64,000 nucleotides of DNA from a virus: positions 98 to 64,097 of the IMG/VR virus record IMGVR_UViG_3300050499_000294; one strand, given 5' to 3'. Every line of letters starts with the position of its first letter. Position 1 is the stretch's first letter. The notes beneath the pieces are model-generated. The model saw nothing but the letters and a program-made list of their open reading frames with translations, did not search any database and was not told where the DNA came from. A program made the position numbers and the translations under genes. This document shows positions 29,986 through 62,719 of the stretch, piece by piece.

Positions 29986-30393
29986 CTATTCACTACGCCG
30001 CGAGGCAGGCGGCGTCGCCGGGGGCGTACTACTACTCGCGGTCGCCTGGTGGCTCCGCGTGGTACTGCGGGCGCTCGGACTCGCGGCCGGTGTCGGCGCC
30101 ATCACGACCACCTGCGCGCCTTCGGGCACGCCCGCGAGCAGCTCCGCCTGCTCATTCGCCTTGGCACGGGCCTCCTCGCGCTCCTCCTCGGTCTGGAGCT
30201 CAGGATGCGTGGCGCCCTGGCCGGTCCGGAAGCGGCTCATCGCCGAGGCGCGGGCCTCGGGCTCCACCTCCTTGCCGCCTGGCGGGACGGGCGTATAATC
30301 GCCCAGGCGCACGGCTTCGGCGGCATCGACGGTGTGCATGTAGGTGGGGGAGCCACCTTCTTTCTCGTACACAATAACTGGATTTTGCGGCAT
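29986..30393 (-). CDS. Hypothetical head-associated protein
   Basis: Co-oriented after the capsid decoration gene; low-complexity C-terminus. Confidence 0.55.
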   Translation of the reverse strand: MPQNPVIVYEKEGGSPTYMHTVDAAEAVRLGDYTPVPPGGKEVEPEARASAMSRFRTGQGATHPELQTEEEREEARAKANEQAELLAGVPEGAQVVVMAPTPAASPSARSTTRSHQATASSSTPPATPPASRRSE

Positions 30394-30423
30394 TTTATAC
30401 TACTCCTCTCAAATATATACCAG

Positions 30424-30852
30424 TTAGATAAATGTAAAAATATCCCCAACGTCCACCGCAAGGCCGTTATTATTACTTGTCTTAGTAATAAAAGATCCAG
30501 CGACTATGCCAGGCGTGGTCCCGCCGATGGCATAGTTGACGCGGATGAATTTACTATCATTGTCGAGCCCCTGCGCCACATTGCCCTGCATCGGAATATG
30601 CACTCGCCCTGCAGCCGTCGTCGGCGTAACGGTATAGGACGCTATGGTTGTATACGTTCCACCCACAAGGTCACTCACTTGCAAATTGAACGTATAGGTC
30701 CCAGTGGCAACGGTGCCGGACCAATGGAGCACCCAATCACACGTTGGGAGGGTACGGGGGTAGGCGAGAATGCCTGTTCCAGAGCCGTTGGCGGCAAGGG
30801 CAGCGCCAGGTGTCAGGAGCGAAAGCGCGGCGTCATAAACCGCAGTCGTCAT
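30424..30852 (-). CDS. Probable capsid cement/decoration protein (Bbp16-like)
   Basis: Follows the MCP; beta-rich; LQVSD...KFIRVNY motif. Confidence 0.6.
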   Translation of the reverse strand: MTTAVYDAALSLLTPGAALAANGSGTGILAYPRTLPTCDWVLHWSGTVATGTYTFNLQVSDLVGGTYTTIASYTVTPTTAAGRVHIPMQGNVAQGLDNDSKFIRVNYAIGGTTPGIVAGSFITKTSNNNGLAVDVGDIFTFI

Positions 30853-30911
30853 AGTACTATCTCCTTTAGAACCTTCTCGTGTGAGAGCATATGTTGTATA
30901 CTCTAGCGTTG

Positions 30912-30976
30912 GTTAGGTTGGAGGTCGCTCCTCCCGATAAAGTCCTGCGTGGTCCTTGTCCATGTGGGAGCCTAAC
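30912..30976 (+). promoter_or_regulatory. Three-way-junction RNA leader of HNH gene 3
   Basis: P1 GTTAGGTT/AGCCTAAC, P2 GGAGG/CCTCC, linker CGATAAAGT, P3 CCTGCGTGG/CCATGTGGG; TATACT at 30897. Confidence 0.5.
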
Positions 30977-31009
30977 TACCCCACTCTGACCATACAAGGA
31001 GGTCATTCC

Positions 31010-31894
31010 ATGCCTGCTCATCGTGTGCCCCGTGTCCAACTCCTCTGTGCCTACGAGCCATGTGCGAAGCCCTTTGAGGCCATGCCTGGCGAAGCCAAGC
31101 GTGGAGGAGTCCGGTATTGTTCGCCCACATGCCGAAGCTTGGCGAGACAGCAACCTCGCGTCTTTCCTCAAATGCTGGCCTGTGCCTATGCCCCATGCGG
31201 TCAAACCTTTGCCGTGATGCCGTGGCAAACCACCATCTGGAAATACTGCTCGACGGCGTGTTACCACGCAGCCCGGCTGACACAGAGCCACGAGGCCTTT
31301 GCGGCACGCTTCTGGAGTAAGGTCGACAAGACCCCTGGCTATGGCCCTCAAGGTCTCTGTTGGCTGTGGAGAGGCGCAACCCATGCGAACGGCTACGGGA
31401 ATTTTCGCGCCACACCCTACAAGGAAGGGAATGTGAGCGCGCACATCGTCAGCTGGTTCCTCAAAACAGGAGAATGGCCCCCAGAAGGCCTGTTTGTGCT
31501 CCATGCATGCGATGTCAAGGCATGCGTCAACAACGAAGCGTGCCTCTTTCTTGGTACGCACATAGAGAATGTGCAGGACATGATGAGCAAGGGGCGGGGA
31601 ATCATGCAGACAAACCCTGAGCGTGTCCATGCAGGGGTACGCCGATGGAATCTTGAGAATCCTACGCGCCCGCAGACAAGTGGCGATAGGAACGGTATGC
31701 GCTTGCATCCTGAGTCTATCCTGCGTGGCGACAACAGCCCCGTACACAAGATTACTGAGGCACAAGTCGAAGAGGCACGCAGGTTGTATGCAACTGGAGA
31801 GTGGACCCTGAGCCAATTGGGTTTGCGCTATGGGGTTACAGCTCCAGCTATTCGCTACCGCATACGTCTTCATAAGCAGCCTTCTAATGACTAG
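31010..31894 (+). CDS. HNH homing endonuclease (antisense insertion)
   Basis: VLHACDVKACVNNEACLFLGTHIEN; two N-terminal Zn-ribbons; C-terminal HTH. Confidence 0.9.
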   Translation: MPAHRVPRVQLLCAYEPCAKPFEAMPGEAKRGGVRYCSPTCRSLARQQPRVFPQMLACAYAPCGQTFAVMPWQTTIWKYCSTACYHAARLTQSHEAFAARFWSKVDKTPGYGPQGLCWLWRGATHANGYGNFRATPYKEGNVSAHIVSWFLKTGEWPPEGLFVLHACDVKACVNNEACLFLGTHIENVQDMMSKGRGIMQTNPERVHAGVRRWNLENPTRPQTSGDRNGMRLHPESILRGDNSPVHKITEAQVEEARRLYATGEWTLSQLGLRYGVTAPAIRYRIRLHKQPSND

Positions 31895-31899
31895 ATATA

Positions 31900-32835
31900 C
31901 TATACCACAACGGCTGCATCTTTTATGCCTCGTAGTCTTGCAACTGATCTACCATGGAATACTGCAATGGAGGCGAACCACTCGACCCTGGTCCTAAAGA
32001 CCGGTTTTGCTTCTAATTCTCCTAGGTCTCTTACGTCTAAAGGCCCATTTTGTATCCCTACTACGCCGCCGTCGCCAAACTGGACCGCATAAACGCTGGT
32101 ACTGGCGGCGGCGCCCCCGCCCGGATTCGCCTCGGTAAACGGCAGGATGTCGTTCCCAACATTATCTTCGCGGGCAATGAGGATCGGAATGCCGTTGTAG
32201 GCCATGACGCGCTGCCCGAACTGATTGGGGTCCCATGTAATGAACCCGCCCACCGCCGTATTGCGCGCTGCCTGCGCCAACCTGAGTGCCATCGTGTTGT
32301 TCATAATGAGGTAGTTAGGGTCATCGACCTTGCTGATCAGCGTATCGAGCTTGAACAAGGAGAGCGCATCCCCGCCCGACGTGGCCCCGGCATCGAGGAG
32401 TTGTGAACTCCCTGGCGGGATACGCCGTTGCAGCCCATCAAATTCTCGAGGGTCGGCTGAACTGTCACCTTTTATAAAAGCGAGGGTCCAGCGGTGGGCA
32501 AGGGCCTTGACCTTCAGACCCTCCTGCACGCTGCGTTGGTTGGCTCCCATCGTTCGCGTGATAAACCGGTCAACATCGAGGTCTCCGCCAGCAATGACAA
32601 GGGATTCCGTGATGGGGTTCAGCACTCCAACCGACTCCGTAAAACCTTCGTTCACTCCGCGAAATCCCACGCCGGGCAAAATATCCTCACGATTATACTT
32701 CAGCGCATTGCCAGCGATTCCTTCAAAAGGTAACACTCTGAGGATGTCAGAATTCCTCGCGTACATTTCCACAATTGCCGTGCGGGCGACATCGCCCGAA
32801 TTGAGCTTGGACGCTTCCACGATGGTCAGGGCCAT
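31900..32835 (-). CDS. Major capsid protein (BPP-1 Bbp17-like HK97 fold)
   Basis: ILRVLPFEGIAGNALKYNRE..LPGVGFRGVNEG; EFDGLQRR; RTRVEWF. Confidence 0.9.
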   Translation of the reverse strand: MALTIVEASKLNSGDVARTAIVEMYARNSDILRVLPFEGIAGNALKYNREDILPGVGFRGVNEGFTESVGVLNPITESLVIAGGDLDVDRFITRTMGANQRSVQEGLKVKALAHRWTLAFIKGDSSADPREFDGLQRRIPPGSSQLLDAGATSGGDALSLFKLDTLISKVDDPNYLIMNNTMALRLAQAARNTAVGGFITWDPNQFGQRVMAYNGIPILIAREDNVGNDILPFTEANPGGGAAASTSVYAVQFGDGGVVGIQNGPLDVRDLGELEAKPVFRTRVEWFASIAVFHGRSVARLRGIKDAAVVV

Positions 32836-32907
32836 AGGGATGTTTCCTCCACGGATGTGCCCTCGCCCTGCCTCAGCGCCCTGCCAGGAGGCTCGTCAGG
32901 GGAGGAG

Positions 32908-33687
32908 TTAGCGGGTTTGCGTCGCCTGCCACTCACGGAAGCGGGTCAGGCGTTCTGCCGGATTCGTGATACTGTTCCAGTCGATGCCCGCGCCATTGCC
33001 GCTATGACTTGCCGGGGCACCACCGCCGGACGACGGCGGCCACAGGTGCGGCGCCTGGCCACTGGCTTTGAGCGTGGTAATCCACTCGCTCGGATTCAGG
33101 GCATTGACGCCATCTTTGCCGTAAATCGTATCATCACCGTTTTTGGCGATCACATTCCCTTTATCGTCCAGGTCGGTGAACACGGACAGCCCGCGTTGTA
33201 CCGCATCGTCAACTGCTTTCTCATACACACCGTTTTTTGTGACCGCGTCAAGGAGTGCCGTTTTGATGCGGTCCTGGCGCCAGCGGCGATCCAGATCGGC
33301 GGCGGTCGTTTTCAGCTGATCATTCTCGCGTTTCAGGGTGCCTACCTGGCGTTCATGATCGGCCCGCATGCTGTCGGTACGTTTAGCGATGAGCACCTCG
33401 ATGCCTTGACGGTCGTAAATATCGGCATCGTCCAAGCCCTTGACGCGCTCTTGCATCTTCCGGTGTTCATCAGGATCGATGCCTTCATAGCGCGTCTTCA
33501 TATCTACGAGCTGCTTCTCGACTTCCCGACGTACCGTGCGCTCGGTCGTCAGGGCTTCTTGCAGCTTGGGAATGCCATCGAGTGAGGGTTCGGTCTGGAG
33601 AATCCATTTCCCCTCATGCTCGGCATAGAGTTCGCGGAAGCTGTCAGGAATCTCTCCCGCAGCCGTATACCATTGTTTCAGCGCCAT
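32908..33687 (-). CDS. Capsid scaffolding protein
   Basis: Coiled-coil protein upstream of the MCP; LYAEHEGKWIL, APHLWPPSSGGGA; start trimmed to MALKQWY. Confidence 0.8.
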   Translation of the reverse strand: MALKQWYTAAGEIPDSFRELYAEHEGKWILQTEPSLDGIPKLQEALTTERTVRREVEKQLVDMKTRYEGIDPDEHRKMQERVKGLDDADIYDRQGIEVLIAKRTDSMRADHERQVGTLKRENDQLKTTAADLDRRWRQDRIKTALLDAVTKNGVYEKAVDDAVQRGLSVFTDLDDKGNVIAKNGDDTIYGKDGVNALNPSEWITTLKASGQAPHLWPPSSGGGAPASHSGNGAGIDWNSITNPAERLTRFREWQATQTR

Positions 33688-33904
33688 ACAGCACCCTCTC
33701 GGTGTGTGTGGTTGGGCCGGCATCTCGCCAGCCATGGACCAAAGACCGCTGCATCTCACAGCGGGAGCGGGGCACCAAAAAAAGCGGCCTCCAGGAATCG
33801 TGTTCCCGAAGGCCGCTTGCGAGACAGAGGCGGATCTCACCCGAGGGCAAGAGCGAATTATGCGCTAAGGTTGTGGATAACTTGGGGAAAAGTCAAGAAA
33901 TATT

Positions 33905-34132
33905 TCACGGCTGGCGTTGTTCCAACGCACGCACCCGCTGCTCCAAGCTATTGAGCTGGTGCTGCAGTGGAAAAGGCTCGGGCACCGTAGCGGCACGGCG
34001 CAGGTCGTGGAGGGTGAGCCCCAGGATGGCCCCACACATGAAGATCGTGAAGAGCAAGATGCCCACCCAGATCCGATCCGCCAGGGGAGGGATCGCGTGG
34101 AGGACGCGGCGAGACCAGGGATCGGGGGGCAT
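33905..34132 (-). CDS. Small single-pass membrane protein
   Basis: IWVGILLFTIFMCGAILGLTL segment plus coiled coil. Confidence 0.55.
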   Translation of the reverse strand: MPPDPWSRRVLHAIPPLADRIWVGILLFTIFMCGAILGLTLHDLRRAATVPEPFPLQHQLNSLEQRVRALEQRQP

Positions 34133-34140
34133 AGGGGCTC

Positions 34141-34500
34141 CTAGTGCGATGTCTTGCGGAATTGGACGGTAGACCCATCCTCATAGGCTTGCATGATCGC
34201 CGGGATTTCCTCCGCCATCGCGCGGAGTTTCTTGTCGTCCCACTTCGGCCTGTGCACGTACGTGACCGTCACGTAGGGCACCTTCTGCGTCTGCTTCAAC
34301 GTCAGAATGGCGGGCTTAATGAGGGCTTGCAGGGTCTCCATCTGGAAGGTCAAGGCTGCGGTATGCTGGGCAAGCTCCCCTTCAAGACGGGTAATCTGTG
34401 TTTGGTATGGGGCGGCTATCTCCTGATACGTCTTGGAGAGGTGAGAAAGCTCCGCTAACCAGCCGCGTAGGTCTTCGAGGGTAGGGTCGGCCATACGCAT
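34141..34500 (-). CDS. Coiled-coil protein, Gam/Gp157-like
   Basis: Helical N-terminus then VTYVHRPKWDDKKL...STVQFR; family call tentative. Confidence 0.4.
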   Translation of the reverse strand: MRMADPTLEDLRGWLAELSHLSKTYQEIAAPYQTQITRLEGELAQHTAALTFQMETLQALIKPAILTLKQTQKVPYVTVTYVHRPKWDDKKLRAMAEEIPAIMQAYEDGSTVQFRKTSH

Positions 34501-34506
34501 TGCTCC

Positions 34507-35703
34507 TTAGACGGTAGGCCGTACGGCTACCTGAATAGATTTGACGGCATTCACCGCAAACCGTGCATGTTTGGCACCCGCCATAGCGACAGGGCTCATA
34601 CTGAGAAAATTGCGATTGAAGTTATAGAGCGTCGTCATGAGTTGCCAGCCTTCCTCTTCGAGCAAGCTCACGACTTTATAGCCAAGAGGTATATGCTGTT
34701 GCTTACGCAAGAGATCATCGGTCATGATGACCAAAATACCCTCAGGGGTGAGGCAGCGAGCAACTTGGTTGATAGCCGCTTTGAGGCCCTCCCGCCACTC
34801 TGCAAAGACATGCCCTAGCTCAGTATATTTGCCTTTCGCTATTGTCAGATAGGGGGGGTCGCAGATAGCGAGGTGGGCACATTGATCAGGAAACGGGAGA
34901 CTTATACGGGCATCGGCCTGTACAATCGCTGGATGCTGCGGGGCAATGTCCGCCATGAGGGCATAGCGTGGTCCGCTAAATTCTGCCTGCGTCACGTGCT
35001 GAAAATGGGTGTACCGCTTGAGAGTGGCTGCGAGGAGACCACCACCTGCGAAGGGATCAAGCACGGTATCGCCGGGATTGGAGAAGTAATGGATGAGGTT
35101 CGCATACAGGGCGGGATTGACCCCGCCTTCAAAGCCATCGAGGCGCTTATCGTCAGCGGCAAAGACCCAATGATTTGACACCTTGAGATCAAAGTCAGGG
35201 CGATACACGCCCTGTGCGGCATCGACACGGGCACGAATGGCACGCCGCAGTTCTGTCCGAAGAGGGCGAGTCTCTTCCGCCCAAGCGCGGACTTCTTCTT
35301 TTTCTGTACGTGGCAAATTACAGTTTGCCATGTGTCGATAGGCTTCATAGGGCAAGATATTATTGCCGGCAATAATATCTGGCCACGTTGCAAAGAGTTT
35401 GCGTGCATTAGCAAGAAACGAGGGCCGCACGGCAGGTTGCCGTTGCGTCTCCAGCCATGCTCGCAGGTCCATATTGGCCTTCTTGCTGATCTCATGCCGC
35501 GGTTTTCCATGCATCGCCGGATGGCGAAGTACTTCTTCGTCAAAGTCTCTCACTAATTGCGCTTTGTCCCAGCTCGTCGTCGCCTCGCGTGCTTCAATCG
35601 CAATGAAGGCTTGCCCATAGCGAGCAATAAGAGCTTCCCATGTTTCCTGGCTGGGGTCCTTTAGAGAAACGTCGACAAGATGTAATGCTGGAGCAGTGGC
35701 CAT
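34507..35703 (-). CDS. Amino-DNA methyltransferase (m6A/m4C) with helical N-terminal domain
   Basis: PGDTVLDPFAGGG (motif I) and ICDPPY (motif IV); TAATG-coupled to the ATPase. Confidence 0.85.
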   Translation of the reverse strand: MATAPALHLVDVSLKDPSQETWEALIARYGQAFIAIEAREATTSWDKAQLVRDFDEEVLRHPAMHGKPRHEISKKANMDLRAWLETQRQPAVRPSFLANARKLFATWPDIIAGNNILPYEAYRHMANCNLPRTEKEEVRAWAEETRPLRTELRRAIRARVDAAQGVYRPDFDLKVSNHWVFAADDKRLDGFEGGVNPALYANLIHYFSNPGDTVLDPFAGGGLLAATLKRYTHFQHVTQAEFSGPRYALMADIAPQHPAIVQADARISLPFPDQCAHLAICDPPYLTIAKGKYTELGHVFAEWREGLKAAINQVARCLTPEGILVIMTDDLLRKQQHIPLGYKVVSLLEEEGWQLMTTLYNFNRNFLSMSPVAMAGAKHARFAVNAVKSIQVAVRPTV

Positions 35704-37340
35704 TAGTGCCGTCTCCTAAAGATTGCAGGATTCGCGGCAATTAACGCCGCTGTTGCATCCCCACCGAAGGGATGGACCGTCGTAAAGTTGCCTTCCGTAC
35801 CGAGATTGTTCTCCTGGCCCTTGCCCACCCAGAAAAAGCCGCCCTGGAGTTCGAGGCGGTCATAGGTTTCCAGCCCTTCTTTGAGCAACACCTCTTCTAA
35901 ATGGCGCCGGTCTGTTCCGCTGCCCAACCCGCGACCAAACCACACCATCTGCGACTGGGTTAAGACCGTTTTCGCCACTTCGGCAATGCGTTGGGCAATA
36001 ACCATCCAGCCGACGCCATATTTACGCGTTTCACGGTAGGCCCGATTCACGACCGACCGTGTTTCATTGGTATCATCGACTCGCGCTTCGGGGACCCACC
36101 GCGTCCCCTCATCCAAAACCACGAGGGCATTGTTTTGTTGCCCCTGGGTATAGCGCCTTTGAGCATGCTGCGTCAGATGCTCCATGAGTTCCCTCATGAC
36201 GTAGACTTGTTCTTTTTCCCGGAGATACCGCGAATCCATCCGTATAACCACCTTGCGCCCATGCTCTAAAATACTCTGGACAAGATCACCCATGCGTTCG
36301 CGGCCATCAAAGAACTGCCTGACGCGCTCAAAGTCACGCTCAAAAGCCCGACGCCGAGCAGGCTGTGTCTGCAATTGAGCGACTTCTTGCAGCTTGGCTT
36401 TCTGGGTATTGCCGCCCCCGGCATAACAGGAGCCAATATGGACGCCAACGGCGTCAAGCACGCGCTCACTCGTCAGTTCCGCAATGGTGACATCCTTCTC
36501 ACCAAAAATCTCTTCGCTCACAAGCTCCCCCAACCTATAGGCAATGTCGTCGCGCATATTCCCTATATGCCGATGGAACGGAAACACCAGGAGATCAGCC
36601 AACGTGGCTCGATCGGTCATGCAAATGTCCTGGACATTGAGCACCTCAACCTTGATCCCCGCAGCCTGACAGACCTCCAGATAATTCCAATGGAAGTCGC
36701 CTCGATCATGGCGCGTGGCATCCGAGAGATCGCCCGCCGTATCGGGCATAAGTAAGCCCATCTGTGGATGTGCGCAGAGCTTCCCAGCGATCAACATCAG
36801 CGCAAAAACCGTTTTGCCTGATCCCGTTTGGCCATAAACCGCATACAAGCGGGCCTCCCCATACCCACCGTCTTCAACTCGGCCAAAATTGCGATTGATA
36901 ATCGTTGCGAGAATCTCTGGGGTATTGGGAATATGGCCCAGTGCGAGCCGATACCGCTCATCTTTCTCATTGTAGAGTCGTGTGAGATGGTCACTATCTG
37001 CGAGGGCAATGAGCGTCCCAGTCGATGGCCAGGCTTGTTGCGGGATTTTGACGTTTTTGGCATCGACCGTCCCAATAATCTGAATGGTCGATTGCTCAAT
37101 ATCGACTTCGCGGGACCATTGCTCCACGCGACCATGAACCATGAGATAGGGCTTGAAGGCAGGATCGTCATGAATCGGATTGCTCAGATTAATAGGCCCC
37201 ATGCGTCCCACAATGAGATTTAACTCGACCGGCAAGGCGACATATTGTCCTGTCAGCGGGGTTCCACGAGCCTCGTGGAGAATCGTACAGTAAATAAGGC
37301 CATCTTTGACACCATCGAGCGTCGCAATCCATCGTTCCAT
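35703..37340 (-). CDS. herA: HerA/FtsK-family ATPase
   Basis: N-terminal HAS-barrel-like region; Walker A GQTGSGKT; Walker B LVVLDEG; RETRKYGVGWMVIAQR; RBS AAGGAG before ATG 37340. Confidence 0.85.
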   Translation of the reverse strand: MERWIATLDGVKDGLIYCTILHEARGTPLTGQYVALPVELNLIVGRMGPINLSNPIHDDPAFKPYLMVHGRVEQWSREVDIEQSTIQIIGTVDAKNVKIPQQAWPSTGTLIALADSDHLTRLYNEKDERYRLALGHIPNTPEILATIINRNFGRVEDGGYGEARLYAVYGQTGSGKTVFALMLIAGKLCAHPQMGLLMPDTAGDLSDATRHDRGDFHWNYLEVCQAAGIKVEVLNVQDICMTDRATLADLLVFPFHRHIGNMRDDIAYRLGELVSEEIFGEKDVTIAELTSERVLDAVGVHIGSCYAGGGNTQKAKLQEVAQLQTQPARRRAFERDFERVRQFFDGRERMGDLVQSILEHGRKVVIRMDSRYLREKEQVYVMRELMEHLTQHAQRRYTQGQQNNALVVLDEGTRWVPEARVDDTNETRSVVNRAYRETRKYGVGWMVIAQRIAEVAKTVLTQSQMVWFGRGLGSGTDRRHLEEVLLKEGLETYDRLELQGGFFWVGKGQENNLGTEGNFTTVHPFGGDATAALIAANPAIFRRRH

Positions 37341-37359
37341 CAGACTCCTTTCGTCCGGG

Positions 37360-38394
37360 TTAGATGAGTGTTCTAGCCGGATCGAAAAAGGGCGTACGTG
37401 GAAAATTGAACATGCCGTAGAGCGTCGCAATGGCTGATAACCGCTTCGTCGTCCAATCCGCCAGAAACTGGGGCCAGGGCTCCACGCTTCGATCTGCCGT
37501 ATGGTACGTGAGGGCGGAAAGTAACGGCATCAGCCATGTATCATCACAGAGCCTCTCTAGCCGTGCTTCAATACGTAAGGCCCGTGAAAACGGATGGGGT
37601 TTAAAATAGGTCATGCCTAAGCGCCGCTCATAGAAATCACGCAGGGCCTGCCGCTCGTCATGCTTGAATCCACGCTTTTCCACGCCAAACCGGCCTTTAG
37701 TCCCTGTGACAAGCGGCTCTGGCGCGAGAAATTCTCCTGGCTGGAGTATCTGTCCAAGGAGTTCACGATCGGAGACAAGCGCACGATCAAACTGGTGTGT
37801 TCTGGCCTGAAGAGCCGCAAGCGTAATACGCTCACTACTCTTGCTCATCGCAATCACTTCAGGATTCTCAAGCAGGGCGAGAAAGCCGCCATCAACGACC
37901 AACCTTTCATACGCTCGATTAATACCAGCATTCCTCGTCCCACCGTTTATACGCCGCGTAATCGTTTGATTCACTTCCATGAGCATCGACCAGAATGACG
38001 TATCGGCAATCGTGGGCGTACAGCTGTCGACCAACAAGATATTTTCCGCGAGCATACGTAAAGGCGTACGGGCCAAGCTCAATTCTTCACCATTAATACC
38101 AGTTTCACGGATAGGGTCGCCGAACGACGTTTGGCCATCGGCATCGACACGGACTGCTTGAATCAAAATAGAACAGATATCGCCGAGCGGGACATCAATG
38201 ACCGCCGCATCCACTGCACCTAATGACGTGGGAGGCGCTGCTTCCACCGTGCGGATATGGAGCAAATCGCGCAACTCAGTGGCATCTTCCAGGAGGTTCA
38301 GTCTTTCGCCAATTTGACGAAGGAAGTCCTGATTGTCGGCAATCCATGGCGCGATTAGCCGTTCAGGAATAGGCCGTGACTCCTCCGCCATCAC
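37360..38394 (-). CDS. nurA: NurA-like nuclease (RNase H/PIWI-related fold)
   Basis: GAVDAA, RMLAE, IADTS, AMSKSS, LRIE and PWPQFLAD correspond to NurA motifs; directly upstream of HerA. Confidence 0.7.
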   Translation of the reverse strand: MMAEESRPIPERLIAPWIADNQDFLRQIGERLNLLEDATELRDLLHIRTVEAAPPTSLGAVDAAVIDVPLGDICSILIQAVRVDADGQTSFGDPIRETGINGEELSLARTPLRMLAENILLVDSCTPTIADTSFWSMLMEVNQTITRRINGGTRNAGINRAYERLVVDGGFLALLENPEVIAMSKSSERITLAALQARTHQFDRALVSDRELLGQILQPGEFLAPEPLVTGTKGRFGVEKRGFKHDERQALRDFYERRLGMTYFKPHPFSRALRIEARLERLCDDTWLMPLLSALTYHTADRSVEPWPQFLADWTTKRLSAIATLYGMFNFPRTPFFDPARTLI

Positions 38395-38573
38395 TCCTCC
38401 TCTCTATGCATAGAGGAATGCCGTGCCTGCTGCTGGCGTTCCTGTTCAGCCTGGACAAGCCCCTCCTCAAGAAAGCGGCGCAACAATTCTGCTTGTTTCA
38501 TTCCAAGCACGTCAGCCAGCGCCTTGAGCCGTACATATTGTTGTGCCGCAATATGGACAGTAATTTTTTTCAT
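38391..38573 (-). CDS. Ribbon-helix-helix (CopG-like) regulator heading the NurA-HerA operon
   Basis: MKKITVHIAAQQYVRLKALADVLGMKQAELLRRFLEEGL. Confidence 0.75.
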   Translation of the reverse strand: MKKITVHIAAQQYVRLKALADVLGMKQAELLRRFLEEGLVQAEQERQQQARHSSMHREEE

Positions 38574-38622
38574 GATATCATTGTATGGCGAAAAGACTGA
38601 TGAAAGCAAGAGGAAAACCGTG

Positions 38623-38820
38623 ATGTGTGACGACGCCGACCTGCCCGACCATGACTTCGAATCCATCTACGGCCATGCCGCCCTGCACGCACGGACCCTG
38701 GCCCGCCTCGATGCGATTGCCCGCAAGATGGAGGCGCAGGCGCATGACTTCCACGCCTGGCTCGCCACGCGGGAGGTCCCACGACACTCGGCCCCGCCCA
38801 CGGGCGTGCAGGACCGGTGA
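38623..38820 (+). CDS. Small hypothetical protein
   Basis: RBS GAGG; divergent from the RHH gene. Confidence 0.4.
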   Translation: MCDDADLPDHDFESIYGHAALHARTLARLDAIARKMEAQAHDFHAWLATREVPRHSAPPTGVQDR

Positions 38821-39645: not shown

Positions 39646-39978
39646 CTAGCCCAAGTCCGGGGGACATGCGGAGGGCGGCTGCTTCTCTAAGCCAATCAAC
39701 CGATTATCGGCCGCATCAATCGCTTTAATCAACTCGTCAACCTTGGTCTGAAGCGCCGTCTCTTGATGCGTTTGGGTATGTTGAATCAAAATGACGAGAA
39801 TCCAGGTTGTCCACGTGAGCAAACTGGTGGGGATGAGATTCCAGAGGTCGCCCCAGTGGAAGACGGGGCCTAATGCTAGCCAGAGCCCAAAGGCCAACAC
39901 GGACCCGAGAAACATCCAGGCCGACCCGGCAACCAGGCTCGCCGTCGTGGCTAGGCGATAAAACCAGTCCGCCTGCAC
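39646..39978 (-). CDS. Low-affinity iron permease (Fet4-like) family membrane protein
   Basis: Two TM segments, then LIQHTQTHQETALQTKVDELIKAIDAADNRLIGLE, matching the family LIQNTQNRD..A.Q.KLDELI motif. Confidence 0.75.
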   Translation of the reverse strand: MQADWFYRLATTASLVAGSAWMFLGSVLAFGLWLALGPVFHWGDLWNLIPTSLLTWTTWILVILIQHTQTHQETALQTKVDELIKAIDAADNRLIGLEKQPPSACPPDLG

Positions 39979-41653: not shown

Positions 41654-42693
41654 GCCCCGAGCTCCTCCAGCGTCAATGGCTTGCCCGTAGCCGCCTCGAT
41701 TAATTGTTTCACCGTGAGCGATCCAGCACGAAACATGCGTGCCCGCGTTGGCCCTAAGACCGCATCCTGATAGGCCGTATCGCGGCGTGCCAGCCAGCTA
41801 CTCACGCTGTCGTTTGGCACGCGACCTCCTCCCGGTACCACCGGGATAAAGCTCGAACGTCAGGCGATATGGTACGGCACACCGGAGAGATAGGGAATGC
41901 TATGCCCCACCGGCGTATGATCGGCATCGGCGGTATACCGGAGGCCATTACGCGCCAGGCAGACGTGTGACGTGCGCGAATCGAGAATCGAATGATGTTC
42001 AATTTGAACTGCATCACTATTCACCATTGCCGTTGCAACGCGCGCCTCACTCACCGCATTGGTCGTCTGCGTGCGTAAGAGGCGTGCGGCATCCTCTTTC
42101 GCCTTCGCCATAATCCCATCTTGAAAGCCGTTCGCCGCCGTCCCTTGCACCCGTGCCGCGAGAGTCGGGAGGGGCTCCTCCAGGCTGACCCCCACCATGA
42201 GCGAATCGCCCACGCGGGTCACGAGCCCAGCGGCGGCGCGGCTCCACCAGTCGTCCCCGGTCGTGCTCAAGTCCGTGGGTGTGGCCGGGCTGGGGATGAG
42301 CGTCTGACGCACGGCCCGGCGCAAGGTCGTCTCGCTGGGCATCTCGTCAATGGTGCGGATCTCCGTCTCGGTATTCACAATGCGCCGCGTGACACGGGCC
42401 TCTTGCTCGGCCAGGGCCACGAGAAACGCGTCCACGTCGCGGGCAATCTGGGCGTACCGGGTCGTTACAAGGGGATCAATCTCATCCCGCACCAGGAATT
42501 GCACCGCCCGGCGCCGCGCCACGAGAAAGCTAAACTGCGCGGGATCGGCCTCCCGGAGTGCATGCAACAGATCCTGCTCCAGCAAGAGCAAGACCGCCCA
42601 GACCTCCTGGCGCTGGTGCGTCTCGGCCCGGCCCACCTGGAGCAAGCGCGCGGTGAAAGCGTCGGCAATCTGCGCATTGACGGGCTCGGTCAT
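41650..42693 (-). CDS. Minor head morphogenesis protein (SPP1 gp7/Mu gpF family) with one in-frame TGA at 41862-41860
   Basis: SILDSRTSHVCLARNG...VPYHIA*RSSFIP...YQDAVLGPTRARMFRAG; both track ORFs share one frame (1044 nt total). Confidence 0.85.
41830..41859 (-). promoter_or_regulatory. Candidate bacterial SECIS hairpin
   Basis: After TGA: 13 nt, then TCCCGGT-GGT-ACCGGGA perfect stem with G at the start of the loop. Confidence 0.5.
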
Positions 42694-44118: not shown

Positions 44119-45669
44119 CTAAGCCACCTGCCGCGTCGTCCCATTGCGTCCCGGTGGTGGGGTTCCTGGTCCTGGAGGCAGCATGGCGAGCGGCCGTTGG
44201 GCTTGCTCGTCTTCAATCAGCGCCTGTTCTTCCTCTACAGGCACAAGTGGCCTTGCAATCTCCCCACGTTGTAAACAGAAATAGAACGTTTCGTACGAAA
44301 TAGTACCGTTGAGCAACGCTTGCATCAAGGCCAGGAGCATCTGCGGTTGCATCACATTCGATACGAGGTCCTTGTTGAGGACCACATGCACGGACGGATC
44401 ATCCACATTTTCAGTGAGGCCCTGCCACCACGCGTGCACTTGCAGTGCCCACGTGAGCCCTTGACTGACGCTGCTCACGAGGCTCTGCACGGGGCTATCG
44501 CTGCCCGCCATGCGCCACTGCACACCCGTGGCCGTTTCCTGGGTCTCCGGTGGACCTTCGAGGAGCCGCGCGCCCATCGCGGCCATCATTTGCAGATCGG
44601 CTTTGAGGGCGTTCTCGTGCGGCTGGAGGCCCTGCCCGTGAAACTCGACGATCCCCACCTTGGCTTGATTATCGGGCAGGAAGAGGGCCGAGCTGGCCCC
44701 CACGTACAGCTCCGGGGGCGCTTCCATGTTGGCGGCAATGTAGAACTGCGGCATGGCGGTCAAGTGTAAGGCATGCTCGTAGTCCGCGCTGTGGCGCCAG
44801 TTCAAAAAGTTCCTTTGGACTAAGCCTTCGAGGAGCGACTTCTCGGGCGTCGGCTCGAGCGAAAACGGCGCCATGAAGCAGAACGGGAGGAAGTCGAGCG
44901 GTTGCCCCTGGCGGGTCGGCATCCACACCCGCTGGAGCGTTGCGGCCTGGGCATTGGTACGCTGGCCAATCGGATCTTCCAGCCACAAGCTCACCTCGTA
45001 GAGCCCCCGTTCATTCAAGCGCAGCACGCGGTACTGAATCTGGTCTTTGACCACAAAGAAGTCGGGCGTCCCCCACGGGCCTTGTGGGACCTGCACACAT
45101 TCCCGCAGCACCACGAGCGACAGGATCGTATCGCCCCCCCGCTGCATCGTGCGCCAGTTAATAATCTCCTCGGCCTGGTACGCCACCCAGTACGGGCGAC
45201 TCTGCGGCGGCGGCGGGAGCAACTGACCATCGGGCGTGAGGTCACCGGTCGGGAAGTCGACCAGGATGCCGAAGCGCCCCATGAGTAAGGTCTCACGCAC
45301 CGCCTCTTCACAGAACATGCGCAGCGAAATGCCGGTCTGCGTAATGTCGGCCAGTTGCGGCTCTAAGGCAGCAGGCCCTACGAGTTGCGGCTCGTGGCGG
45401 AATACCGAGCCGGTAATCCCATGCACGGCGTGTTCTGTGGCACTCGTCCACGCGGGGCGATCCCGATACGCGGCGTACTGTTCATCGCGGCGCATCCCCG
45501 CTGGGCGTGGCAGATACGCCGTCCCATTGCGCGCTGTGGACGTACTGCGGCGGACGGCATCGAGGGGCTGTGCCGACTTGACGGCGGCTTCGCCCAGGTA
45601 GCCGTCGCGCAGCATCGCCCAGAGCGGCAGCATGGCACGATACGCCGGATGCGGAAGCGTGACACTCAT
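44119..45669 (-). CDS. Portal protein (DUF4055 type)
   Basis: After the terminase; RPYWVAYQAEEIINW, NWRHSADYEHALHLTAMP motifs. Confidence 0.9.
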   Translation of the reverse strand: MSVTLPHPAYRAMLPLWAMLRDGYLGEAAVKSAQPLDAVRRSTSTARNGTAYLPRPAGMRRDEQYAAYRDRPAWTSATEHAVHGITGSVFRHEPQLVGPAALEPQLADITQTGISLRMFCEEAVRETLLMGRFGILVDFPTGDLTPDGQLLPPPPQSRPYWVAYQAEEIINWRTMQRGGDTILSLVVLRECVQVPQGPWGTPDFFVVKDQIQYRVLRLNERGLYEVSLWLEDPIGQRTNAQAATLQRVWMPTRQGQPLDFLPFCFMAPFSLEPTPEKSLLEGLVQRNFLNWRHSADYEHALHLTAMPQFYIAANMEAPPELYVGASSALFLPDNQAKVGIVEFHGQGLQPHENALKADLQMMAAMGARLLEGPPETQETATGVQWRMAGSDSPVQSLVSSVSQGLTWALQVHAWWQGLTENVDDPSVHVVLNKDLVSNVMQPQMLLALMQALLNGTISYETFYFCLQRGEIARPLVPVEEEQALIEDEQAQRPLAMLPPGPGTPPPGRNGTTRQVA

Positions 45670-47123
45670 ATATGCAACTCCATCGCCAAACTCCTACGCG
45701 GCGGCGGCGCAAACGTACAGCCGAGTGCATCGGCAAGATCACACGAATGCCCGAGACGCTTGCGGATATGGTCTTTATCTTCAACCACGAGTTGTCCCTG
45801 GCTATCAAACCCATACCCCACACTCGCCAATTCCCCCGCGAGGTCCTCGCACGCGTTCGCAGCCGGTGCACAAAACACCGGCTGGGCCGTCCGCAGCCAC
45901 TCCGCCACTTCCAGCCAGAGATAATCGCGGAGGAGACGTGGCTTCGCCTCCGCAGGATGACGCACGACGGGAGCCTTCTCCGCCACATTCACCGCCGTAA
46001 TGCCGACACGGATCACGCCCTGACGTTTTAACTCCGCAAGGCGATCATAGACACCTGCACCCAACCCAATGACATCAATGGCGACTTCTTCCACCTGCCA
46101 GGGCTCCAAGACCGCGAGAATACAGCCGACCGTGGCCATGGTGTCCTGACGTGCATAGACCTTGATCTGGTCAATGAGACTCCCATGCCGCAAGACAAGC
46201 GCTGTACGATCTGAACCCAGTCGCGCCACATCTACGCCAAGCCGCCGCACCCCACCAGGCTCGCGTCGTTCACGAGTCAGACAGGGCTCGGTGAGCTCCA
46301 GGGAGATCAGCACGTCGTCGGCTTGGCGCGGGAATTCGCCGTCCGCGCGCACGCGCACCACATTGGAGCCTTCGCCCCACTTCGCCACGAGGCGGGGGCG
46401 GTAGGAGGCATCCACCAACGGCGAATCCTGCGAGCGAAAGTGCAGCGTGGTATAACTGCCCCGGTCCTTGTGATGGGAGGCGTAGAACGTGCCATTGGTG
46501 CGGGTGGGATTCCCCAACATGAGGACGCGGGCCTCGGGCGTCGAGAGCGCCCCTTCCGCCGCCTCAAACACTTCTTCGGGCATGCCGCTGGCTTCATCAA
46601 GGACGAAGAGCAGATGCGTCGCATGAAAGCCCTGGAGGGCTTCGGGGTTTTCCTTGCGAGCGGTGCGGGCGAACGCGCCCCATTCTTTCGCGCTGGGGTC
46701 CACGAGACTATCCGTGAGGAGCTTAAAAAGCCGCGAGAGCCAGAAGCGCGGCGGGTCGCCACGGGCGGCGCTGAGGGCATCCGCATGCCGACGCCACTTA
46801 CTGAGCTCGCCCCACAAAATGTCGCGGAGCTGATGCGAGGAAGGAGCCGAACAGGGGACTTTGGCATAGTCGTGGGTTTCGAGCATCCAACTCACCGCCC
46901 AGGCGGCACTCGAACTTTTGCCAATGCCGTGCCCAGAGCGCACCGAGACTTTCGCGCCGGGAGGGAGGATGGCCTCCAGAATCTGGGACTGCTGCAGCGT
47001 GGGCTCCATACCAAAGCGTTGGCGGACATAGAGGACGGGGTTCTCGCGCCAGCGGTCGCGCAGTTCGAGATACTGCTCGAAGGCCGACGCGGGCTCCGCG
47101 AGGTCAGTGAGGAGTGTCGCCAT
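45666..47123 (-). CDS. terL: Terminase large subunit
   Basis: VRSGHGIGKS (Walker A), LDEASG (Walker B), GVDVARLGSD and DLADAL nuclease motifs. Confidence 0.95.
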   Translation of the reverse strand: MATLLTDLAEPASAFEQYLELRDRWRENPVLYVRQRFGMEPTLQQSQILEAILPPGAKVSVRSGHGIGKSSSAAWAVSWMLETHDYAKVPCSAPSSHQLRDILWGELSKWRRHADALSAARGDPPRFWLSRLFKLLTDSLVDPSAKEWGAFARTARKENPEALQGFHATHLLFVLDEASGMPEEVFEAAEGALSTPEARVLMLGNPTRTNGTFYASHHKDRGSYTTLHFRSQDSPLVDASYRPRLVAKWGEGSNVVRVRADGEFPRQADDVLISLELTEPCLTRERREPGGVRRLGVDVARLGSDRTALVLRHGSLIDQIKVYARQDTMATVGCILAVLEPWQVEEVAIDVIGLGAGVYDRLAELKRQGVIRVGITAVNVAEKAPVVRHPAEAKPRLLRDYLWLEVAEWLRTAQPVFCAPAANACEDLAGELASVGYGFDSQGQLVVEDKDHIRKRLGHSCDLADALGCTFAPPPRRSLAMELHI

Positions 47124-47535
47124 TGGGAGCCTTTCGCGCTTGAGCCAGGAGGCTGGCCAGCCCGTCACTCAGTTCCACATCGAGACGTTGCTTCGCGGGA
47201 GCCAACTCGGGGTCGATCCGTTCGAGGACTTGGAGCGCGAGCAGCCCATTGCCGTCTTTAATAGTCCGCAGGAGTGCCGCACGGGAGGCATGTTCGAGAT
47301 CGACCAGCCAGCGCTTGCGGGCTTCGGCAAGCGCCAAGGCCCAGTGGTCTTTGCGAGATTCCCACGTGGCAATAGTGCGGATCGACCGCCCCACTGCACG
47401 CGCTGCATCCAACTGGGTAGCGCCCATCATCCGAAGATACGCGGCAAGGATACATTTTTCCCAATAGGGGATAGGCGGCGGGTTGGCACGCTGCGCATAG
47501 GCAACTTTTGGGGGAGGCCGGTGAGCAAACGCCAT
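47104..47535 (-). CDS. terS: Terminase small subunit
   Basis: N-terminal HTH (GATQLDAARAVGRSIRTIATWE) upstream of terL. Confidence 0.7.
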   Translation of the reverse strand: MAFAHRPPPKVAYAQRANPPPIPYWEKCILAAYLRMMGATQLDAARAVGRSIRTIATWESRKDHWALALAEARKRWLVDLEHASRAALLRTIKDGNGLLALQVLERIDPELAPAKQRLDVELSDGLASLLAQARKAPNGDTPH

Positions 47536-54968: not shown

Positions 54969-57033
54969 ATGCATCAGCCACGAAAGGATCTGGGCGAAGT
55001 GCTTCAGGACACCTGGTCGGCCTGTTATGACACAGGCTGGCAAGGCTTGATCTGTCCTGAAGCCTTCGCCCACTGAGGACCCCGCCAAATTTTCCCGCAG
55101 CTTGATCCAGCGTATCTATCAGCACTGCGCCGCCGAGGGATGGCTGGCACCAGGATCAACAGTACTAGATTGCTTCGCGGGTACCGGACTCGGGGGGTTG
55201 GATGCCGCCCTCGCCGGCTATCGTTTTATCGGTGTAGAGTTGGAGGCGCGTTTTTGCGCCCTGGCCCACGGCTTTGACTGTGGCGGCTCGGACGCCAAGC
55301 ACGAGGCCTGTAGCCAGCAAGAATCCCACGAGCCGCACCACGTCACGGGAAACCTGGAGTTGTGGCAACGGCGCTACGGGCACCTCCCGCAGTGGGTGGC
55401 GCCGACGCTGCTCCAAGGCGATTCGCGGGCACTGGGGACCGTACTGCGGGACCAGATCACGGCATGCGTGGCCTCGCCACCATTCGGTGCAGAACAATCA
55501 GGCGGGGGCATTGCGATAACCGGCACTCCTAGCCAACGCAAGTCCCCTGGCTCTACGTCACCTGTAGGCTATCAGCATCAGGGCACGGCCCCCGGTCAGC
55601 TCGGCGCGCTCCCCCCCGGCTCGCTCGATGCGGCGATCGCCTCCCCGCCCCATGTCCACGGCCTGGGCAAAGAGCATACCTACTCCGACCACGCCAAGCG
55701 CGAGCGGGACAGCCACAGCGGCATCTACCGCGACAAGGGCATTGCCGACCCGTACTATGGCAGTGACCCGGCGCAACTGGGGAACCTGCCAGCGGGGTCG
55801 CTCGATGCGTGCCTGAGTAGCCCGCCGTACGCAGACGGTTGTCACCGCACAGGCGGGACAAATACCCCCCCCGCAGTACGCGGCGATGGGACGGCCTTCA
55901 GAGAAGGGCAAAGCATGGCGTTTACTCACTACGGCAGCGCCCCGGCGCAGCTGGGGAACCTGCCAGCGGGGTCGGTGGAGGCGGCGATCTCGTCGCCCCC
56001 GTATGAGGCCAGTGTCACGGTAGGCCATGCACCAGAGAAGGACATTGCCAGGGCTGTCGCCGCAGGGCATACGCTTGCCTCCATGGGGAATCCCGGCGGG
56101 CAACTCCGCTATGCCTTTGAATATGGCACCGACCCGGCTCAGCTTGGCAACGAGCACGGCACCACGTTTTGGGAAGCCAGTAAGCAGATACTCGAGCAAG
56201 TAGTGGCCCTATTAAAACCAAATGGCATTGCCGTATGGGTGGTCAAATCATACGTGCGCGAAGGGCAAATTGTTGATTTTCCAGGACAATGGAGAACTTT
56301 ATGCGAATCCCTGGGCCTGGTCACGCTACACGAGCACCACGCGCTCCTGGTCGAGGACCACGGCACGCAGGGTTCGCTGTTTGGCGCCGACACCACACAC
56401 CGCACCGAGCGCAAGAGCTTCTTCCGCCGCCTGCATGAGAAGAAGCGCCCCGACCTGGCGATTGATTATGAGGTGGTCCTGTGTATGCAGAAGCGCGAGG
56501 GGACGACAGCAGGGAATGTTGAGGTGTGCGTAAGTTCCCCACCGTATGCGGCCCACACCGTCCACGGCAACGATGGTATTGACTGGGCACGCGCCAGCAA
56601 TGACGGCCAAACACGGGGCCAGTCGGCGGCAGCCGACTATGGTCACACTGAGGGCCAACTGGGGGCGATGCCCGCCGGCAGCCTCGACGCGTGTGTGAGT
56701 AGCCCCCCGTATAACCTCCCCATGTCCCAGGACCATAACGGCAGTCGGGGCGGCGCTCGGGGCACAACCCCGAGCGAGCAGGGCGCATTCGTGAAGTATG
56801 GCAGCACGCCGGGACAACTCGAAGGCATGCCCCCCGGCAGCCTGGACGCCGTGGTGAGTAGCCCGCCCTATGCCGCGTCCTTCCGTGGACAGACGGAGAC
56901 GGCGACGCGCATAGAACTGGAGAAACGGTTTCCACACTGGCACACCGGTGGACGCTCGCAACTTGATACGCCACGTGGCTACGGCACCACGCCGGGCAAC
57001 CTGGGCAACCTCCCCGAGGGCCTGACGCCCTAG
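54969..57033 (+). CDS. Modular amino-DNA methyltransferase with seven SPP(Y/F/H) modules; frame interrupted at 55074-55080
   Basis: RBS and ATG 54969 give ...EAFAH then TGA; the +1 frame resumes PAKFSRSLIQRIY...VLDCFAGTG (motif I); seven SPPx blocks. Confidence 0.8.
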
Positions 57034-61455: not shown

Positions 61456-61641
61456 ATGGCCCCGAGCCCAACGAGTCAAATTACGATAGTGTTTGACCGC
61501 GAACGGATGCGCGAGTTTCGTGCGGAATGTATCCGCCGCGATACGACGCCGACTGAGGAGTTACGCCGCTTCATGGATCAACGCTTAGACGAGTGGCTGC
61601 ACGCCACCCAAGGAGCCCCCGATGGCCGAGACCGCCGTTAG
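61456..61641 (+). CDS. Small RHH/ParG-like protein
   Basis: ITIVFDRERMREFRAECIRRDTTPTEELRRFM. Confidence 0.65.
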   Translation: MAPSPTSQITIVFDRERMREFRAECIRRDTTPTEELRRFMDQRLDEWLHATQGAPDGRDRR

Positions 61642-62719
61642 TCGCAAGTCGGCGCTACTGCCTGCACCCGTGGTGAGCACCATGCGCGACCTCATGCCCG
61701 ATGTCTACAAGCTGCTCCCCCCCGACATCACCAGCGAGCAATTCCGCGCCGCCTGCTGGCTCGAACTCACCGGCAACAAAGACGTGTCCGAGTGCGTCGT
61801 TGAAAGCATTCGGGACGCGATCATTTACGCCGCCAATTATGGCCTCATGCCGGGCAGAGATGCCCACTTTATCGCCTACAAACAGAAGAAATACCGGAAC
61901 CAGAAGGGCCTACAGTGCATCCCGACCTACTTTGGCGTTATCCGCACGCTGGACCGCACCGGCAAAGTGCGCCGGGCCTTCGCCCATCCCGTCCACGAGG
62001 GGGACGAATGGTCCTTTGATATGTTCCAGGATCGTCCCGTGCATCGCCCTGCCGTCACGCTGGGCAAGAAGCCCGGTGCCGAGTTGTTTTATTACGGCGC
62101 GGTCATGTTCAAGTCGGGCGACTGCGCCTTTGAGGTCCTGACGCTGGAGGACCTGGACGCGATTCGCCGCCGCGCGCCTGGGCATGAAAGCGGTCCCTGG
62201 GTGAGCGATACGGTCATGATGAAGCGCAAAACTGCCATTAAGCGCGTCGCCAAGTACGTGCAGCTGACGCCAGACCTGCGCCAGTTCTTTGAGGGAGACG
62301 ACGAGCGCGAGAAAGAAGACATCCCCCAGGCACGCCACCAGCAAAATGTGATTGATCTCTTTGGTGAGGGGGCCGACCCCACCGCCCACGGTGCTCCGGC
62401 GGCCGTCCCGCAGCCCGTCCCGCAGCCCGTAGAACCCGACAACCCGCTCATCGTGCGCATTGAGGAGGTGCTGACGCAGCGCGGCCTGGAGTATGACGCC
62501 CGTGCGGACTGGTGGGAACGGATGGCGGCGACGTACCCCGACCTGGGGGAACCGACCACTCTGGCGATGCTCTATGATGCGCTTGTGAGCGAGAATGCCC
62601 CTAGAAACCCCCAGGATGGCCCAGGAGCCACGAAGTCCCCCAGGGAAGGGGGTACGGACGTCAGGACGCCAGAAGCTGCCAAGCAGCCTGACGAGGACAT
62701 CGACTTCTTTTCTGAGTAG
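61622..62719 (+). CDS. recT: RecT-family single-strand annealing recombinase
   Basis: AANYGLMPG...AHFIAY...PTYFGVI...GPWVSDTVMMKRKTAIKRVAKY; acidic C-terminal DIDFFSE. Confidence 0.9.
   Translation: MAETAVSRKSALLPAPVVSTMRDLMPDVYKLLPPDITSEQFRAACWLELTGNKDVSECVVESIRDAIIYAANYGLMPGRDAHFIAYKQKKYRNQKGLQCIPTYFGVIRTLDRTGKVRRAFAHPVHEGDEWSFDMFQDRPVHRPAVTLGKKPGAELFYYGAVMFKSGDCAFEVLTLEDLDAIRRRAPGHESGPWVSDTVMMKRKTAIKRVAKYVQLTPDLRQFFEGDDEREKEDIPQARHQQNVIDLFGEGADPTAHGAPAAVPQPVPQPVEPDNPLIVRIEEVLTQRGLEYDARADWWERMAATYPDLGEPTTLAMLYDALVSENAPRNPQDGPGATKSPREGGTDVRTPEAAKQPDEDIDFFSE

Follow-up and report, generated by a model that had tools for sequence, protein, structure and literature searches.

The stretch of viral DNA analysed here, referred to as the window, is 64,000 nucleotides long and covers positions 98 to 64,097 of IMG/VR record IMGVR_UViG_3300050499_000294, that is, nearly all of a 64.4-kb provirus record from rhizosphere metagenomes. 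We focus on four coupled genes on its minus strand (34507-38573), which encode, in gene order, a ribbon-helix-helix (RHH) protein, a NurA-like nuclease, a HerA-like ATPase and a DNA amino-methyltransferase, and which lie within the head-gene cluster of the phage. Judging from the sequences and from analogy with better characterized systems, we lean, with some reserve, towards the view that this cassette is a methylation-guarded, restriction-modification-like HerA-NurA module that degrades DNA; the best reading of its distribution is that it is self-contained and horizontally mobile. We lean this way because the three enzyme genes form a conserved unit, because the methylase can be replaced by another methylase, because the cassette occupies a slot used by modification and conflict genes, because a cellular relative lies in a defence island and because there is a precedent in the sulfur-based TdpABC system, of which this cassette would be the methyl counterpart.

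The nuclease, the motor and the methylase

The NurA-like nuclease (37360-38391, minus strand) has 343 residues when read from the ATG at 38391, its most likely start. At the level of sequence its relationship to NurA is distant: the Pfam NurA family (PF09376) scores 18.1 bits, below the gathering cut-off of 21, no PADLOC model is matched, and a profile of the family finds no match among PDB sequences, such that only fold comparison worked. The family is also rare, with 24 clusters at 90% identity in a word-based search, all of them metagenomic. Folding of the single sequence reached a pLDDT (predicted local distance difference test) of 33, and an AlphaFold model built from an alignment of 22 homologues, with a pLDDT of 88.4, was used instead. 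In VIA-align, this model superposes on S. solfataricus NurA (2ygk) with a Z of 20.2 and a root-mean-square deviation of 4.3 over 291 residues, and on T. kodakarensis NurA (9x1m_G) with a Z of 19.7. Archaeal NurAs take ranks 1-7 (Z 16.4-20.2) and the next, unrelated tier begins at Z 8.9, with endonuclease V and PIWI domains at about 8.7; TdpB (8wfd_G) reaches Z 12.9 over 261 residues and D. radiodurans NurA Z 12.8. A Foldseek search with the same model gives an E of 2.6e-9, and the top clusters of the AlphaFold database carry the name NurA. The predicted structure thus confirms a NurA-type, RNase-H-like fold over nearly the full length of the protein, as the first-pass annotation of this DNA, made from the letters alone, had proposed.

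The family differs from NurA in motif IV. D62, E117, D131, H267, E276 and D313 are invariant in the 22 homologues. Motif IV of NurA has been given as LxxAHxxx(A/V)(R/H/K) (PMC13748450); the C-terminal motif of the window protein reads QFLADW, that of the family QF(L/M)AD, and Asp313 stands in place of the motif-IV His. That an Asp (in FLAD) is found where NurA usually has His had been noticed at first reading and is correct.

The gene that follows encodes a HerA-family P-loop ATPase of 545 residues (35703-37340, minus strand), in which the Walker A (GQTGSGKT) and Walker B (VVLDEG) motifs are legible. It matches PADLOC HerA models down to an E of 9.5e-16, as well as mad8 at 1.7e-8, and scores 22.8 bits against Pfam DUF87, just under the cut-off of 23.2. 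A profile of seven orthologues finds the solved HerA structures with E values ranging from 2.4e-11 to 1.1e-5, among them 8wiv (2.4e-11), S. solfataricus 4d2i (2.6e-10) and TdpA 8wet (2.5e-6). The protein is presumed to be a hexameric double-stranded DNA translocase. In the NurA family the nuclease acts as a dimer that docks on a hexamer of HerA; a prediction of a 1:1 complex of the HerA-like and NurA-like proteins scored 0.01, which is evidence neither way.

The third enzyme is a DNA amino-methyltransferase of 398 residues (34507-35703, minus strand). Pfam N6_N4_Mtase (PF01555) matches it with an E of 1.8e-11 and 44.9 bits, well over the cut-off of 26.7, in permuted order: motif I (DPFAGGG, residues 216-222) precedes motif IV (DPPY, residues 282-285), and both are invariant in six orthologues. 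PADLOC models mad2 (1.2e-12) and MTase_II (1.9e-12) match as well, and its profile matches the beta-class methyltransferases 2zie, M.RsrI and CcrM; from the DPPY motif, N6-adenine methylation is the predicted product. An N-terminal domain of about residues 1-170 is conserved within the protein's own family only; no known match was found for it, and a protein-atlas search returned noise-level scores (0.82 at most). The names given to the motor and the methylase at first reading are therefore both supported, the former by PADLOC HerA models and by profile matches to solved HerAs, the latter by a family score above the Pfam cut-off.

A cargo slot in the head-gene cluster

The four genes are tightly packed. 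The TGA stop of the RHH gene overlaps the ATG of the NurA-like gene; a 17-nt gap with an AAGGAG site then leads to the ATG of the HerA-like gene at 37340, and the stop of the latter overlaps the ATG of the methylase gene (TAATG). Each of the coupled starts has a ribosome-binding site. We place the start of the HerA-like gene at ATG 37340, most likely in preference to TTG 37430, because the alignment with homologues begins there. GC content is 0.538 for 34145-38628 compared with 0.614 in the remaining window, and GC content at third codon positions (GC3) is 0.51-0.59 in the four genes compared with 0.71-0.80 in backbone genes. The region 30250-33800, with the scaffold and capsid genes and an antisense HNH gene, is likewise somewhat GC-poor, so the dip extends beyond the operon. 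The first-pass description of four tightly coupled, GC-poorer genes between head-morphogenesis and scaffold genes is thus confirmed, apart from slight adjustments of gene starts and of how far the GC dip reaches. Contigs from other runs span both junctions with zero mismatches (X6 records 3 and 7, X7 record 15, X8 records 19 and 23), which argues that the placement of the operon is no assembly chimera.

Comparison with twelve IMG/VR contigs that have a matching head module, most with a capsid protein 91-96% identical to that of the window, defines the site. DNA homology to the window ends at 38805, or at 38629 for L008 and L009; on the other side it picks up again at 34144, 34132 or 33905, a point that varies among the relatives. 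What lies between varies widely. In L016 the slot is empty, with only about 360 nt; in L011-L014 it holds an RHH gene, a gene for a 270-residue protein and one for a DUF5131 protein (PADLOC candidates PDC-M41B/M30B); in L018 (L018:4971-7200) a ParB_N protein followed by a MORC-like GHKL ATPase (HATPase_c_3); in L008 and L009 a DndB-like protein, T5orf172 and a Dam methylase; in L015 and L019 an AntA antirepressor and unknowns; and in L020 DndB, a methylase and an HNH-like protein. The slot (33850-38805) has fixed breakpoints near 38805 and 33905, and its contents, apart from the empty site, comprise five or more distinct sets of modification or conflict genes. The same metagenomes contain loose ends at 38805 and 33905 that match cargo of the L011-L014 type, which indicates that siblings with alternative cargos coexist. 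The comparison supports the reading of the operon as foreign cargo, placed where this phage lineage is hypervariable. In L013, the cargo (L013:7481-9934) comprises the RHH gene, the 270-residue protein, which has no family match, and a DUF5131 protein of 513 residues.

Two further genes lie downstream of the methylase. A 119-residue coiled-coil protein (34141-34500, minus strand) is translationally coupled to the methylase stop, and a 75-residue, single-pass membrane open reading frame (ORF; 33905-34132, minus strand) is coupled in turn to the 119-residue gene, its ribosome-binding site overlapping the preceding stop. GC3 is 0.75 in the former and likewise backbone-like in the latter. Homologues of the 119-residue protein (51-84% identity) stand behind other methylase-containing cargos in L020 and L021, and the gene is absent beside the triad of NurA-like, HerA-like and methylase genes in the other carriers examined; since its GC3 is backbone-like and it occurs with other cargos, we do not count it in the system. 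Homologues of the 75-residue ORF (72-75% identity) lie at the downstream slot edge in L008, L009 and L017. The two look like semi-conserved slot genes rather than cargo. With both counted to the slot, the foreign cargo is reduced to the RHH gene and the triad, nearly the coordinates given at first reading. The idea that the 119-residue protein binds ends like Mu Gam and thereby controls the nuclease was considered and rejected, as the match (E 9.6e-4) is below cut-off and concerns the coiled coil only. In a different phage, L021:1287-4823 encodes an MT-A70 methylase and proteins of 367 and 548 residues just before the homologue of the 119-residue gene. The latter two proteins have no Pfam match, hhalign ruled them out as divergent NurA and HerA, and the set may be another unnamed methylase-linked system.

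The triad in other carriers

A NurA-like gene, a HerA-sized gene and a methylase gene occur in constant order in eight of nine other contexts examined, on unrelated backbones; homology of the middle gene to HerA is confirmed where carrier DNA was compared, the gene elsewhere being HerA-sized only. Overlapping stop and start codons recur in these triads. In the compared carriers, HerA is 44-64% identical to that of the window and the methylase 40-71% identical over almost its full length. L006 departs from this pattern in an informative manner: its methylase (L006:5671-6567, 298 residues) overlaps the HerA stop, has several N-terminal CxxC pairs in a Zn-ribbon and shows no detectable similarity to the window methylase. 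This looks like a non-orthologous replacement, and what the pair seems to need is thus a methylase rather than one specific protein.

The triad is also found outside phages. A metagenome-assembled genome (MAG) of the Chloroflexota carries an orthologous NurA-HerA-methylase triad on a 176-kb contig (L023:709-15526). Its NurA-like protein aligns with that of the window at an hhalign E of 2.3e-48 and scores 22.9 bits against Pfam NurA, above the cut-off; its HerA is 33% identical to the window HerA; and its methylase aligns at an hhalign E of 6.3e-76, beginning near residue 40 and thereby including most of the N-terminal domain. The immediate neighbours of this triad are Wadjet JetC/JetD (PADLOC E 0 and 2.5e-138) on one side and PsyrA/PsyrT (2.6e-56 and 1.4e-264) on the other, the latter followed by a Cas4-like nuclease (Cas4/RNase-H-like). 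The neighbourhood is a textbook defence island. More widely, a profile search of 1.84 billion representative proteins yields 314 related clusters at E of 0.001 or below, 40 of them at 1e-30 or below. Among 401 Chloroflexota genomes, 33 have generic bacterial NurA-like proteins that this profile also picks up, some with a related HerA adjacent. In a pattern scan of a genome collection, the NurA profile found no relative and the HerA profile found two.

The RHH gene does not travel with the triad. No RHH homologue lies beside the triad in L001 or L003-L007, and the small gene upstream varies, being HTH_17 in L004, GcrA-like in L003, and without a family hit or RHH homology in others; by this comparison the RHH protein is not part of the conserved module. 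Of the four-gene defence-like unit proposed at first reading, the survey of neighbourhoods upholds the triad and provides one cellular defence island, but most carriers place the triad in early or replication modules and the RHH gene is not conserved. GcrA-like regulator genes adjoin the triad in two carriers, at L003:5293-5769 and in one further contig. GcrA reads adenine methylation in alphaproteobacteria, and its relatives beside the triad hint at alphaproteobacterial hosts.

These contexts bear on two other accounts of what the triad does. First of all, NurA-HerA could serve phage DNA metabolism, resecting ends for an annealing recombinase (RecT here, ERF elsewhere), for recombination-dependent replication or for concatemer processing, with the methylase as an anti-restriction passenger. 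HerA-NurA pairs canonically act in end resection (PMC3326311, PMC9960219), the triad adjoins genes for ERF, Gp157, DnaB, SSB or DUF1376 in L001, L003 and one further contig, and for the RecT of the window phage no exonuclease partner was recognised in that phage. We nevertheless regard this account as rather unlikely: the lineage can do without the cassette, the site being empty or filled with unrelated cargo in close siblings; an AAA_24 and PD-(D/E)XK exonuclease module is already present beside the triad of L006; and the methylase stays with the NurA-HerA pair even when it is of a different family, and also accompanies it on a bacterial chromosome, with a defence system on either side.

Second, the module could be a lytic weapon or counter-defence, expressed early. 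Its methylase would shield new phage DNA both from restriction by the host and from the nuclease that the phage itself encodes, while NurA-HerA would shred host or co-infecting DNA, starting at ends or breaks. Chloroviruses use their own restriction-modification enzymes in a comparable way. Several temperate phages carry the triad directly after cI/Cro-type switches, as early expression would have it, and the biochemical logic is identical to that of the restriction-modification-like module that we prefer. On the other hand, a free methylase would mark host DNA too, the window cassette has its own candidate promoter and regulator and lies in the late, not the early, region, and the Chloroflexota orthologue is not on a recognisable phage. 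We consider an offensive use of this kind improbable.

Comparison with known systems

The nearest named system is TdpABC, described, as cited in PMC12914056, as a phosphorothioate-based, modification-dependent restriction system of thermophiles (An et al. 2025, Nat Chem Biol 21:1160). Both consist of three genes, for a DNA-modifying enzyme, a HerA-like ATPase and a NurA-like nuclease, and the matches given above, of the window HerA profile to TdpA and of the NurA model to TdpB, are distant but significant. The two differ in several respects. The self mark, a backbone sulfur placed by TdpC in the thermophile system, would here be base methylation by a PF01555 enzyme; no Dnd-, Ssp- or Tdp-type modification gene is present within the operon, whose third enzyme is the methyltransferase. 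The window nuclease is structurally nearer to archaeal NurA (Z of about 20) than to TdpB. Finally, carriers here are mostly phages, there thermophile chromosomes, and the order here is NurA-HerA-methylase.

With the HerA-NurA resection complexes (S. solfataricus 2ygk/4d2i, P. furiosus 3tai, T. kodakarensis 9x1m, D. radiodurans 7f6d) the cassette shares the nuclease fold and the adjacent HerA-family ATPase; the invariant D62, E117 and D131 are candidates for the catalytic acidic residues of motifs I-III. Unlike them, it has no Mre11/Rad50 neighbours, its nuclease has the motif-IV Asp and scores below the Pfam NurA cut-off, and the pair is methylase-linked and mobile.

By gene order, the nearest operon is the tdtA operon of ICETh1 in Thermus thermophilus HB27, which comprises Tth111II, the NurA-like TTC1878, TdtA and the methylase TTC1880 (PMC5365140). 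Compared by order and size, the two agree: NurA-like (377 residues in Thermus), HerA-like (TdtA) and PF01555 methylase (410 residues) follow one another, the sizes are similar, and both sit on mobile elements (PMC5365140). The Thermus operon adds a type IIG restriction enzyme, however, and is needed for DNA donation. This raises a third account, in which the NurA-like nuclease and the HerA-like ATPase would push DNA out of a donor, as a machine for export or donation. The shared gene order speaks for it, but the cassette has no type IIG endonuclease, the element is not an integrative and conjugative element, and a tailed phage has its own terminase; we consider it very unlikely to apply here.

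The eight-gene MADS system of Pseudomonas aeruginosa (mad1-8) was also considered, given the weak PADLOC matches to mad2 and mad8 noted above. MAD6, MAD7 and MAD8 are mandatory in its authors' model; with no match to mad6 or mad7, and a mad2 score that does not stand out from those of generic type II methylases, membership was rejected. Our literature search found no paper that describes a defence system made up of NurA, HerA and a methylase, and the module is unnamed in PADLOC and Pfam. The cassette is an unnamed, methylation-linked and mainly phage-borne HerA-NurA module with a permuted methylase and an Asp-type NurA, and it sits in a newly delineated cargo slot of the head module.

Proposed function

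We infer the following course of events for the restriction-modification-like module. The HerA-type hexameric motor and the NurA-type nuclease would assemble as in the archaeal complexes and in TdpAB, and the machine would load on free double-stranded DNA ends, such as those of an injected or replicating linear phage genome or of broken DNA, and then degrade the loaded DNA processively. On the carrier's own DNA, marks placed by the co-inherited amino-methyltransferase would cause the machine to stall or to fail to engage; for TdpAB, it is the modification on self DNA that blocks translocation. The RHH protein would set the level of expression, similarly to the controller proteins of restriction-modification systems, and the module as a whole would serve prophage and host against competing phages or plasmids.

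Several observations weigh against this proposal. The first-pass annotation had read the operon as a methylation-gated, restriction-like defence or anti-competitor system; in PADLOC, models for HerA and for the methylase are matched but no defence system is called, the database having no model for the NurA-like protein. No methylation-reading domain was identified. The ICETh1 operon of matching order serves DNA donation (PMC5365140). The most divergent NurA-like member stands alone, with no HerA-sized or methylase gene beside it. Most phage carriers have the triad in an early operon by ERF, Gp157, DnaB, SSB, DUF1376 or AAA_24/PD-(D/E)XK genes, a position that would be repressed in a lysogen and would suit DNA metabolism, unlike a moron site expressed by lysogens. 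Finally, the defence-island context rests on one neighbourhood.

A bolder version is more speculative, and we hold it to be doubtful. The cassette could be the phage-adapted branch of an unnamed immune or conflict class, in which an end-loading HerA-NurA shredder is restrained by site-specific base methylation, the methylated sites playing the part of an epigenetic 'Chi' towards a RecBCD-like machine. Such a system would be used by temperate phages both as an early lytic weapon and as cargo that protects the lysogen, and the Asp-for-His site and the private N-terminal domain of the methylase would couple marking to shredding.

The RHH gene and its putative control region

The RHH protein (38391-38573, minus strand, 60 residues) is encoded by the first gene of the cargo. 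Its match to Pfam RHH_10 (E 0.0035) is below cut-off; it is 41% identical (E 2e-6) to the product of the first gene of the different cargo in L011-L014, which itself passes Pfam RHH_1 with 22.5 bits against a cut-off of 20.5. The RHH protein is likely to be a transcriptional regulator of the cargo.

The region between its start and a divergent plus-strand gene is short (38574-38628). As read from the sequence, no Shine-Dalgarno site precedes the RHH ATG, the palindrome ATGATATCAT spans this ATG, and an inverted repeat lies at 38531-38558. A plus-strand promoter-like site, TGGACA-16-TATCAT (38554-38581), overlaps the RHH start and faces the divergent ORF. On the minus strand, TTGCTT-18-TACAAT is a hand-read candidate, below the threshold of the consensus scanner, which called none for the RHH gene; a promoter there would start transcription at or near the RHH ATG. 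The region may accordingly hold candidate overlapping divergent promoters. The L013 cargo is laid out alike, with a promoter-like site followed by an RHH gene without leader. The divergent ORF (38623-38820, plus strand, 65 residues) forms the upstream slot edge; it is GC-rich, has a good ribosome-binding site and no family match, and its counterparts in L008/L009 have 62% amino-acid and 74.7% nucleotide identity and an unchanged relative orientation.

The phage and its head genes

The late genes of the window phage are on the minus strand and include the large terminase (45666-47168), the portal (44119-45669), a MuF-like head-morphogenesis gene (41860-42693; phrog_241, E 3.1e-32), the head scaffolding gene (32908-33840; phrog_206, E 1.2e-31) and the major head protein (31900-32835; phrog_212, E 1e-79). 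The operon lies between the MuF-like and scaffold genes, which serve as its upstream and downstream landmarks, with about 3.2 kb of small backbone genes on the MuF side. One of these encodes a small membrane protein of the low-affinity iron permease family (39646-39978; Pfam E 4.3e-21; moron category in phrog), which is kept among siblings, upstream of the slot. On the downstream side, a strong intrinsic-terminator-like hairpin (33818-33782, minus strand, 16-bp stem and T run), conserved in sibling phages, closes the slot just ahead of the scaffold gene. The real start of the latter is probably near 33735, because the PHROG match begins at residue 54; the longest scaffold ORF, with its 33735-33840 portion, starts upstream of the hairpin.

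Directly after the major head gene lies an antisense HNH endonuclease gene (30956-31894, plus strand; Pfam HNH_3). Siblings L010, L011, L013-L015 and L018 have related HNH genes in this place or displaced from it, which suggests a mobile, homing-type insertion. The plus-strand early region encodes a second PF01555 methylase (55102-57033, 643 residues) and the RecT recombinase (61622-62719). A megablast search with 17 kb of the head region found no match in public phage records, and none of the runs on record as RNA contains the stretch.

Implications

If the reading as a methylation-guarded module is true, modification-gated HerA-NurA restriction would extend from sulfur, as in TdpABC, to ordinary base methylation, and a recurrent, unnamed gene triad would be explained. 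It would further mean that modules of this kind are carried by phages and passed between them, in early operons as well as in a cargo slot of the head-gene cluster. The slot would then be a place to mine for further conflict systems; several of its other cargos are unannotated (for example the MT-A70 set with its 367- and 548-residue proteins, and the RHH set with the 270-residue and DUF5131 proteins). The cassette would also make it tractable to test by what means a nuclease that loads on ends and degrades processively is kept safe for the genome that encodes it.

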